From positions 1 to 61,645 of the forward strand of contig DYJF01000003.1 in assembly GCA_020723205.1 (NCBI GenBank): DNA of 61,645 nt. Reading direction: 5' to 3'. A program made the translations under genes and the position numbers. Source of the DNA: Bdellovibrio sp. Its GTDB lineage: Bacteria; UBA10199; 2-02-FULL-44-16; DYJF01. A model generated the notes under the pieces. That model had not been told where the DNA came from. It did not search any database and was given only the letters and a program-made list of their open reading frames with translations. Positions 36,712-38,046 of this stretch are shown piece by piece (position 1 is the first letter of the stretch; the number at the start of each line of letters is the position of its first letter).

Positions 36712-36738
36712 GCAACTTCCTGATCTTTCTGCCGAAAA
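36712..36738 (+). promoter_or_regulatory. Alternative-sigma-type promoter motif, copy 2 of 4 (GCAACTT-N13-CCGAAAA)
   Basis: Lies in the AT-rich intergenic region, 27 nt before the ATG at 36766. Followed by GTGAGGGAGCA (36756-36766), an 11-mer also found at 51892-51902. Confidence 0.5.
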
Positions 36739-36765
36739 AGAAGCGGGTATTCAACGTGAGGGAGC

Positions 36766-38046
36766 ATGGCTGTTCAATCTTTCAATGATCAGGTCAGGCA
36801 AGTTCCCATATTGTCGCACCATATACAAGGCGCGTCCAAAGCGGCAATAGACGAGCTTCTTGTGGATTACGTCGTCCGATACGAGGCGGAAAGCGGCGAG
36901 TCGATGGGGCTCTATTGCGATATGGCCGCTACGAGGTGGACGCGTGACCATGAAGTGGAGACGCGTTTTTTCAGGTCTCTTTCGGATTTTTTGATGCGGC
37001 TTCCCTCCGCCCGAAGGAGGGCTCCCCTTGGACTGTTGAGTGACGCTTACACCGAATATTTGAGAGGAGGGGCGCGCTGTCCCGTGGGCTCGCCGGCCCG
37101 TTCCAGCTACGAACTGGCGGCGAGATACAGGAAGATCGAAGTGACGGACGATCTGCCCGCGGAAGATCGCGAGATGATAAGGAACGCTCTTTCGTCGATC
37201 GCCGACGCGATAGGAGCGGGAATGCTCGTGAAGGAGGAGCACCTCTACAGGAGGTTATTGATACTCTTGGGGCGTCCCTACACGCATGCGAAATATCTGG
37301 GCTACAAGATAGCGGGCGGTCTCGCCGGCATCGACAGCTCTCATCCAAGGCATCTGACTTTTCCGCGGGATCTGGGCGGGTTCATTTCGATCCTCCACGA
37401 GGTGATGATGATCGAAGTTCCTGCTAAGTATGTGAAGCAGTGGAGATCGCTCATGGACAGGGTGCTGGCGGTGGCCTTCGAACGCTCGTTGAATCCCGTC
37501 CGACTCTATTACCTGGAGAAGACCCTTGCCCGGATCCTGCTTTATGGCGATATCTTCGAAGAGCGGGCACGCGGCGGCGTAAAGAGGGACCAGAAGGTCC
37601 GCGGAAGATCGCCTTCCATCGCGATCCGCATGAAGAGGATGTTCGAGGAGATGCTCGGTATGCTGGAGGATCCGGAGCTTGCCGCCTCGATGGACATAGC
37701 CGCGCGGCTCTTTCCGCGCGATCCGGCCGAGGCGATAGCGGTCTTCGAGACGATACTTGAGAGAAGGGCGCAGGGGGGGGGAAGCGGGCCGCGCGGAGGA
37801 CAGCAGTCTTCTCCAGCCGGTTCGGCGCCGCCCCTCCCTTCGCCGGCGGGACTCCCGCCATTGCAGGGAGCCGTGGAGGTAGGAGGTCTGTTGGAGGAAG
37901 AGGGCATTCCGTTCGTTCCCTCCGCGCATTATCGCAACGGGATCGCGGGCAGGATGGTCGGCGGCGCAGTGAGGATGTTCCGCATGCCTGCGATGGTAAA
38001 CAATATGACGACGTTTTCAATGAGGAACTATGCCGGAACCTGGTGA
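36766..38046 (+). CDS. Hypothetical protein A (426 aa), helical, with a Gly/Pro-rich linker and conserved C-terminal tail
   Basis: Long ORF with no recognisable family. It contains a G9 homopolymer at 37773-37781. The tail resembles that of the ORF at 50453. Confidence 0.6.
   Translation: MAVQSFNDQVRQVPILSHHIQGASKAAIDELLVDYVVRYEAESGESMGLYCDMAATRWTRDHEVETRFFRSLSDFLMRLPSARRRAPLGLLSDAYTEYLRGGARCPVGSPARSSYELAARYRKIEVTDDLPAEDREMIRNALSSIADAIGAGMLVKEEHLYRRLLILLGRPYTHAKYLGYKIAGGLAGIDSSHPRHLTFPRDLGGFISILHEVMMIEVPAKYVKQWRSLMDRVLAVAFERSLNPVRLYYLEKTLARILLYGDIFEERARGGVKRDQKVRGRSPSIAIRMKRMFEEMLGMLEDPELAASMDIAARLFPRDPAEAIAVFETILERRAQGGGSGPRGGQQSSPAGSAPPLPSPAGLPPLQGAVEVGGLLEEEGIPFVPSAHYRNGIAGRMVGGAVRMFRMPAMVNNMTTFSMRNYAGTW

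Follow-up and report, generated by a model that had tools for sequence, protein, structure and literature searches.

We sought to determine whether four bipartite sequence elements that stand just upstream of start codons in a 61,645-nt stretch of DNA from Bdellovibrio sp. (contig DYJF01000003.1, assembly GCA_020723205.1; the window in what follows) are promoters, and which sigma factor reads them. The initial annotation of the window, made from its letters alone, had taken them for promoters of an alternative sigma factor and had suggested that two giant sigma-family genes encoded nearby are the factors concerned. We find that all four sites belong to a single class of alternative-sigma promoters, kept across an uncultured Gram-negative lineage whose genomes are deposited as unclassified 'Pseudomonadota', 'Deltaproteobacteria bacterium' or plain 'bacterium'. 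The element is a variant sigma-28-type promoter, and it stands out by its density, its lineage specificity and a near-exclusive tie to fast-evolving genes of unknown function.

All four sites lie on the coding strand. Site 1 (13867..13893, +) joins a -35 box GCAACCTTT (13867-13875) to a -10 box GGCGATAA (13886-13893); its transcript is predicted to start near 13901, and its target is a 185-residue protein (13906..14463, +) with the Pfam domains DnaJ and PilZ, here called J-PilZ. The weaker site 2 (36712..36738, +) has the form GCAACTTCC-N10-GCCGAAAA and a predicted transcript start near 36746, and precedes the three-gene cluster A-B-C (36766..41314, +; A 36766-38046, B 38030-38953, C 38972-41314). 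Site 3 (50417..50443, +; GCAACTTTT-N10-ACCGAAAA) precedes the orphan gene D (50453..51766, +; 437 residues). Since its predicted transcript start, near 50451, falls 2 bases ahead of the ATG, this transcript would be effectively leaderless. Site 4 (51859..51885, +; GCAACTTTT-N10-GCCGAAAA), with a predicted start near 51893, is followed by a leader (51886..51934, +) and the cluster E-F-FolE (51935..53749, +; E 51935-52360, F 52608-53177, FolE 53174-53749). From the end of the motif to the start codon there are 12, 27, 9 and 49 nt at sites 1 to 4. The coordinates and sequences of the initial annotation proved exact throughout, and the pattern GCAACYT-N13-SCGAWAA, which expresses its claim of a constant 13-nt spacing on the coding strand 9-49 nt before a start codon, matches all four sites; in octamer form they read (A)GCAACYTY-N11-(G/A)SCGAWAA. 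The 11-mer GTGAGGGAGCA, which had been noticed at sites 2 and 4, is found in the window at 36756 and 51892 with no third copy, and at site 2 it forms the ribosome-binding site.

The strict pattern has four matches in the window, none of them on the minus strand, where 100 dinucleotide-preserving shuffles gave an expectation of 0.00. Allowing two mismatches added just two further matches, both on the minus strand and within chance. We also scanned the window with a two-block weight matrix trained on nine sites from other genomes, none of them orthologous to a window site. The top three scores in the window belonged to sites 1, 4 and 3 (27.0, 25.3 and 24.5 bits). These three exceed every one of 200 Markov shuffles of the window, for which the best score was 23.8 bits and the 95th percentile 19.5, while site 2, at 14.6 bits, lies inside the null range. 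Site 2 was nevertheless retained on three grounds: it is an exact match to the strict pattern; its -35 variant GCAACTTC is also present in two loci from other genomes (L003, minus strand; L021, plus strand); and it stands 27 nt ahead of a start codon with a strong ribosome-binding site. As negative controls we used 69 loci from unrelated bacteria, 654 kb in all. Matches of at least 22 bits numbered 11 in 120 kb of loci sampled through the housekeeping gene era and 6 in 119 kb of loci around giant sigma genes of near relatives; there were none in the 654 kb from unrelated bacteria and none in 50 kb around giant sigma genes of distant relatives. Seventeen independent, non-orthologous sites gave the consensus GCAACTTTT-N10-gCCGATAA, worth about 28 bits, of which 13.9 bits fall in the -35 box, 11.4 bits in the -10 box and about 1 bit in the spacer. 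The core C, G and A of the -10 box is invariant in 17/17 of these sites, several of which are perfect octamers, and the spacing between the boxes is constant save for one extra base in 1 of about 25 sites. Two other models were set aside: an Infernal model built on sequence alone from the nine outside sites proved too dilute, recovering just sites 4 and 1 at E < 0.05, and an earlier 41-nt matrix that included flanks was overfitted.

Conservation was followed along two lines. A scan with the second giant sigma protein (S2), one genome per species, returned a single relative, L001, an unclassified genome bin with 61% identity and preserved synteny. At position 6806 of L001 stands the orthologue of site 4, with both boxes identical, a different spacer and a near-identical leader. 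Strict or near-strict motifs occur in further loci with giant sigma genes: in L002 directly ahead of the giant sigma gene and also ahead of an 819-residue orphan; in L003 ahead of a 506-residue orphan that precedes the sigma gene and, divergently, ahead of a 504-residue gene; in L005 ahead of a 275-residue orphan; and in L006 ahead of the orthologue of that gene. The contigs L008, L010, L012 and L014 yielded no copy. The second line used Era (window 12975-13859) as a probe, which samples the lineage independently of sigma genes. A protein search with Era returned more than 100 clusters of uncultured bacteria with identities of at least 58%, and a metagenome scan gave 80 loci. In L016, from the same genome bin as L001, the arrangement era-[AGCAACCTTT...GGCGATAA]-J-PilZ is preserved with a diverged spacer. 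Among Era loci at 59-79% identity the motif again stands ahead of J-PilZ in L018/L019, L021 and L090, with a variant in L024, and the J-PilZ orthologues are 69-79% identical within the lineage. New sites lie ahead of other orphans in L018(-), L020, L021(-) and L028, and in L025(-), where Era identity is 55%. Assemblies that bear the motif include GCA_041739675.1, GCA_027327785.1, GCA_041648665.1 and GCA_016927275.1, as well as the 1.09-Mb contig of ERZ21869602. Between orthologous sites both boxes are retained and the spacer drifts, and every site points to a start codon 8-49 nt downstream.

The leader of site 4 is an observation in its own right. Its first ~30 nt are AATAATCGGTGAGGGAGCAAAAGGGGGAGTTT, and this sequence differs by one base in L001 (window 51886-51934, L001 6833-6882); the leader is nearly fixed though the proteins E and F encoded behind it are just 26% and 32% identical between the two genomes. 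Within the window leader GGGAGCAAAA occurs twice, and GTGAGGGAG is found also in a leader of another locus, L098. Its conservation might reflect a strong context for ribosome binding, or else a signal in the leader. A riboswitch ahead of folE was weighed and rejected; the Rfam search gave no match.

These features are those of a promoter-type element of an alternative sigma factor, as first proposed: the element is bipartite, strand-specific, intergenic and fixed in spacing, and its boxes are conserved while the spacer diverges. If it were instead an operator, a mobile-element repeat or a leader signal acting at the RNA level, one point could be counted in favour: at sites 1 and 3 a G-rich, ribosome-binding-like sequence directly past the -10 box fills the gap to the start codon, at or upstream of the predicted transcript start. 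We nonetheless regard these non-promoter readings as very improbable. The motif has no dyad symmetry, its two boxes keep a fixed spacing of 10-11 bp across an unconstrained spacer, its distance to the start codon ranges from 8 to 49 nt, it has no match in Rfam, and each box agrees, in register, with a known sigma recognition element. A mobile repeat in particular was rejected on the ground that the flanks of non-orthologous sites are not conserved. A literature search for the motif strings returned just primer noise.

The register can be read from a known sigma-28 promoter, that of Pseudomonas aeruginosa fliC, which carries TCTAAAG from -36 to -30 and GCCGATAA from -15 to -8 (PMC12784957). In sigma-28 register the element reads G-34 CAACTTT-27 and G-15 CCGAWAA-8, and its -35 box also aligns with the P. 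aeruginosa TCTAAAG (PMC12784957). Set against the Escherichia coli (E. coli) form TAAAGTTT-N11-GCCGATAA, five of eight positions agree in the -35 box and essentially all eight in the -10 box. The likeness to promoters of the FliA/SigD/WhiG group extends to the identical -10 sequence gCCGATAA, with its invariant CGA core and an A at -11, to the 11 bp between octamers as in E. coli (a -35 pentamer, N15 and CCGATA, in the same register), and to the AA core and T-run that the -35 box shares with TAAAGTTT. In about a third of the sites the start codon follows the -10 octamer by 8-12 nt (window 13893-13906 and 50443-50453; L002 9954-9963; also L025 and L006). By analogy with sigma-28 geometry, these short gaps would make the transcripts leaderless or give them very short leaders in about a third of cases.

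The initial annotation had described the element as an AAC-type -35 box combined with a sigma-28-type -10 box, and both are present in the consensus. Because of the AAC-type -35 box, an extracytoplasmic function (ECF, group 4) sigma factor, or another small alternative sigma encoded elsewhere, has to be weighed as reader, controlling effector-like genes as HrpL does through the hrp box. ECF promoters carry AAC in the -35 and CGT in the -10 element, and hrp boxes stand ahead of scattered effector genes. The box GCAACTTTT resembles ECF boxes such as the GGAACTT of sigma-E, with AAC followed by T's, and the AAC-N16-CG geometry, including its 16-bp spacing, suits ECF promoters as well as sigma-28 promoters. 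As with HrpL, the motif marks scattered genes of unknown function, and its near-invariance would follow from stringent recognition; the targets are orphan, fast-evolving and by eye free of signal peptides, like secretion substrates, and one related genome holds a type-III export gene set. The -10 box, however, is not a short CGT core but the full eight-base GCCGATAA of sigma-28 type, with CGA followed by (T/A)AA. No ECF-like gene, and no pair of ECF sigma and anti-sigma genes, lies downstream of any of about 25 sites, where the sole sigma genes are the giant sigmas of L002 and L003. ECF regulons are moreover usually small, whereas this motif is much denser than the promoters of a typical ECF regulon. 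We consider an ECF-type reader unlikely.

Further evidence on the regulon comes from its target genes. We compared 144 genes in seven loci for which gene calls and Pfam status were at hand, assigning a motif to a gene if it lay no more than 130 nt ahead of the gene and pointed towards it. The motif precedes 14 of the 32 genes without a Pfam family and 4 of the 112 with one (Fisher p = 8e-8), which confirms the tie to orphan or unusual genes that the initial annotation had seen at four sites. The four Pfam-bearing targets are J-PilZ (twice), one giant sigma and one AmiA-like protein. Of ten additional targets none belongs to a Pfam family, save for one faint B12-binding match. L098, an unbiased pick, spans 20.9 kb around era and belongs to the 1.09-Mb contig that also bears L002; it holds seven sites, each ahead of a gene, and six of these genes lack a Pfam family. 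At its sparsest the motif thus occurs about once per 15-23 kb and at its densest once per 3 kb; by extrapolation, the regulon probably comprises hundreds of promoters per genome. Housekeeping genes show the opposite picture: none of about 40 annotated in the window has a copy, in agreement with what had been noted before. These include rodA, trxA, thrS, pheST, mnmA, rnc, era, der, bamB, guaBA and dnaE, and further hflX, lipB, dsbD, serCA, folE, trmB and a xerC/D-type recombinase gene. Protein identities between the window and the organism of L001 and L016 are 95% for FolE, 79% for Era, 79% for J-PilZ, 74% for TrmB, 61% for S2, 32% for F and 26% for E; judged by such sequence comparison, the motif targets are fast-evolving. 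In the cluster E-F-FolE (51935-53749, compared with L001 6883-8717) the hypervariable E and F share an operon with the highly conserved GTP cyclohydrolase I (FolE, Pfam GTP_cyclohydroI).

Searches were also made with the individual targets. Proteins A and B have no match in Pfam, NCBIfam, PADLOC, PHROG or PDB, and A has no homologue in 5.8 billion proteins. Protein C contains a ClpA/ClpB-like AAA+ module, its match to ClpB/ClpV/ClpA being only partial. D matches no family and no PDB entry, E and F match no family, and searches of the target proteins and leaders against PADLOC, PHROGs, Rfam and PDB sequences returned nothing informative. Two motif-driven genes from other genomes may be mentioned here. 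The 'orphan' at L003 6599-8113 (-) carries a CxxxCxxC motif (GCRNGCNFC) together with the faint B12-binding match, which suggests a divergent B12-dependent radical-SAM enzyme. The orthologous proteins encoded at L005 12677-13504 and L006 10472-11203 both contain a stretch rich in glycine (ENGSGFWP / ENGPGLFP), reminiscent by eye of a motif of S-adenosylmethionine-dependent methyltransferases, and have no Pfam match.

We then considered the giant sigma factors themselves. S1 (54531-57134) and S2 (57131-59899), together at 54531..59899 on the + strand, are indeed sigma-70-family genes of unusual size, of about 870 and 920 codons; they are tandem paralogues in which the S1 stop overlaps the S2 start. 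Each protein begins with ~650 residues of roughly five helical repeats of ~95 residues and ends in a sigma-70 domain, from which region 3 is missing in S1. The family of giant sigmas amounts to 13 proteins in 5.8 billion, its N-terminal domain family to 36 representatives in 1.84 billion proteins, and no relatives were found in IMG/VR. An AlphaFold model of S2 has a mean predicted local distance difference test (pLDDT) score of 81, and its top PDB fold matches are all sigma factors and cover the sigma domain only. The proteins are like MzaA of the MZA anti-phage system (NCBIfam NF041931, PADLOC PDLC02203) in being long and ending in a sigma-70 domain, over which alone they match the MzaA models, weakly (70 bits against an 800-bit cut-off). 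They are unlike MzaA in having no N-terminal match and no Mza partner genes, and their five-repeat helical N-terminus is a separate, very small family. The space that separates the giant sigma gene of L008 from a divergent Fic-HTH gene (about 9750-9990) contains repeated TATCGAAC / GTTCGATA half-sites; going by their sequence they look like an operator, at a locus that lacks the promoter motif.

If S1, S2 and their relatives were the cognate factors, as the initial annotation had suggested, then the motif would be their autoregulated regulon. Gene positions lend this idea some colour. In L002 the motif lies 8 nt ahead of the in-frame ATG of the giant sigma gene, in L003 it stands ahead of a two-gene operon ending in the sigma gene, in L005 it adjoins the sigma gene, in the window and L001 it lies 2.7 kb upstream, and 6 of 7 near-clade loci with giant sigmas carry it. 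Two DNA-melting tryptophans are replaced by Ser-Ser in the giant sigmas, as expected of a stringent alternative sigma. Given the high density of the motif, however, nearness to a sigma gene is expected by chance, and once the background density had been measured we discounted proximity as support. The motif is upstream of the giant sigma gene in just 2 of 10 loci (L002 and L003, but not the window, where S1/S2 have none, nor L001, L005, L006, L008, L010, L012 and L014), which is about the chance rate at this density. In these two genomes the giant sigma gene is therefore at least a target.

The recognition residues also weigh against the giant sigmas. The region 4.2 helix is RERIRQ in S1, S2 and the relative P0008, and this is the sigma-70 recognition helix, which reads TTGACA. 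In other family members it is GERVRQ, QARVSK, RQRVQQ or KERIRR, though their genomes carry the identical box GCAACTTTT; region 2.4 differs as well, and some members have region 3 while others lack it, under the same motif. The sigma domain scores 87 bits against SigA and 39 bits against FliA, so that its closest relatives are SigA, RpoD and RpoS, not FliA or ECF factors. Occurrence leans the same way. L010, L012 and L014 carry giant sigmas and no motif in 50 kb (0 of 3 distant loci), and in the sub-lineage of the window, where the motif is conserved, about 12 Era clusters at 75-80% identity stand against one further giant sigma of corresponding divergence, so that giant sigmas look far rarer than the lineage that bears the motif, as the size of their N-terminal family also indicates. 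On this evidence we judge a giant-sigma regulon rather unlikely. Quite unlikely, too, is the broader proposal of a lineage-wide 'orphan-gene regulon' of hundreds of near-identical promoters, kept for the fastest-evolving genes peculiar to the lineage and read by a factor other than canonical FliA, possibly the giant sigmas alone or in a cascade, which would then be a sigma class of their own with a defined promoter.

The explanation we favour, and hold to be on balance probable, is that a conventional sigma-28-like factor encoded elsewhere reads the motif and acts as a global regulator of fast-evolving, lineage-specific genes. RNA polymerase with this FliA-family factor would bind the -35 box GCAAC(T/C)TTT at about -34 to -26 and the extended -10 box G(C/G)CGA(T/A)AA at -15 to -8. 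The A at -11 would be flipped out, and transcription would begin 7-8 nt past the -10 box, which for about one site in three is at the start codon or a few bases from it. The factor would be a conserved FliA-family sigma encoded outside the window with a re-specified -35 specificity, and S1 and S2 would more likely be cargo or targets of the programme than its master. The near-invariance of the motif fits a sigma with weak melting capacity.

Several observations weigh against a sigma-28-like reader. The -35 box is GCAAC and not TAAAG, from which it differs at three of five positions, and has the AAC of ECF -35 boxes in place of TAAA(G). The window and its nearest relative also prefer A over T in the -10 box (CCGAAAA), which is unusual for sigma-28 sites. 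About 330 kb of lineage DNA yielded no gene for a small sigma, FliA-like or other. The roughly 25 downstream genes, drawn from a small fraction of each genome, encode no flagellar or chemotaxis domain. Genes of flagellar type turned up only in L008, where fliPQR-like genes are not separable from those of an injectisome. Finally, in L002 the motif immediately precedes the giant sigma gene and in L003 the operon that contains it, a picture such as autoregulation would give. As to the L008 genes (21174-22601), NCBIfam is undecided between flagellum and injectisome for the fliP-, fliQ- and fliR-like genes, and they are followed by orphan and TPR genes, not by flhB.

The rest of the window is a stretch of bacterial chromosome with nearly all genes on the + strand and a GC skew that is positive throughout. 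Between guaA and dnaE it holds three clustered genes of PF05635, the 23S rRNA intervening-sequence protein, a four-helix bundle (26810-27145, -; 27055-27564, +; 29020-29355, +). Two short open reading frames on the minus strand lie among them, one a DUF167 protein and one without a match.

A sigma-28-like global regulator has its closest functional counterpart in Bdellovibrio bacteriovorus, where TTAAG-N16-CCGATA is found in 92 of 140 attack-phase promoters, many of them ahead of uncharacterised proteins, and where a global regulatory role, extending to many genes of uncharacterised function, has been proposed for FliA (PMC3627812). The system described here is like that regulon in its dense sigma-28-type motif reaching beyond flagellar genes and placed largely ahead of uncharacterised proteins, and in the lack of the motif at housekeeping and growth genes, as the comparison by Pfam status and the seven sites of L098 indicate. 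It is unlike it in its -35 box, in a spacing one base shorter and in a stronger bias to strict orphans. The attractive but unsupported link between the motif and the very rare giant sigma proteins is hereby corrected. The regulon would add a case in which a factor of sigma-28 type has been recruited to global control outside the flagellum, with its -35 box re-specified. One promoter signature of 28 bits tells rapidly diverging, lineage-specific genes apart from housekeeping genes, and therefore predicts which unknown genes are co-expressed. It suggests that the lineage lives by two programmes, much as Bdellovibrio has its attack and growth phases, and gives a sharp and testable handle on the 'dark' part of the genome of an uncultured lineage.

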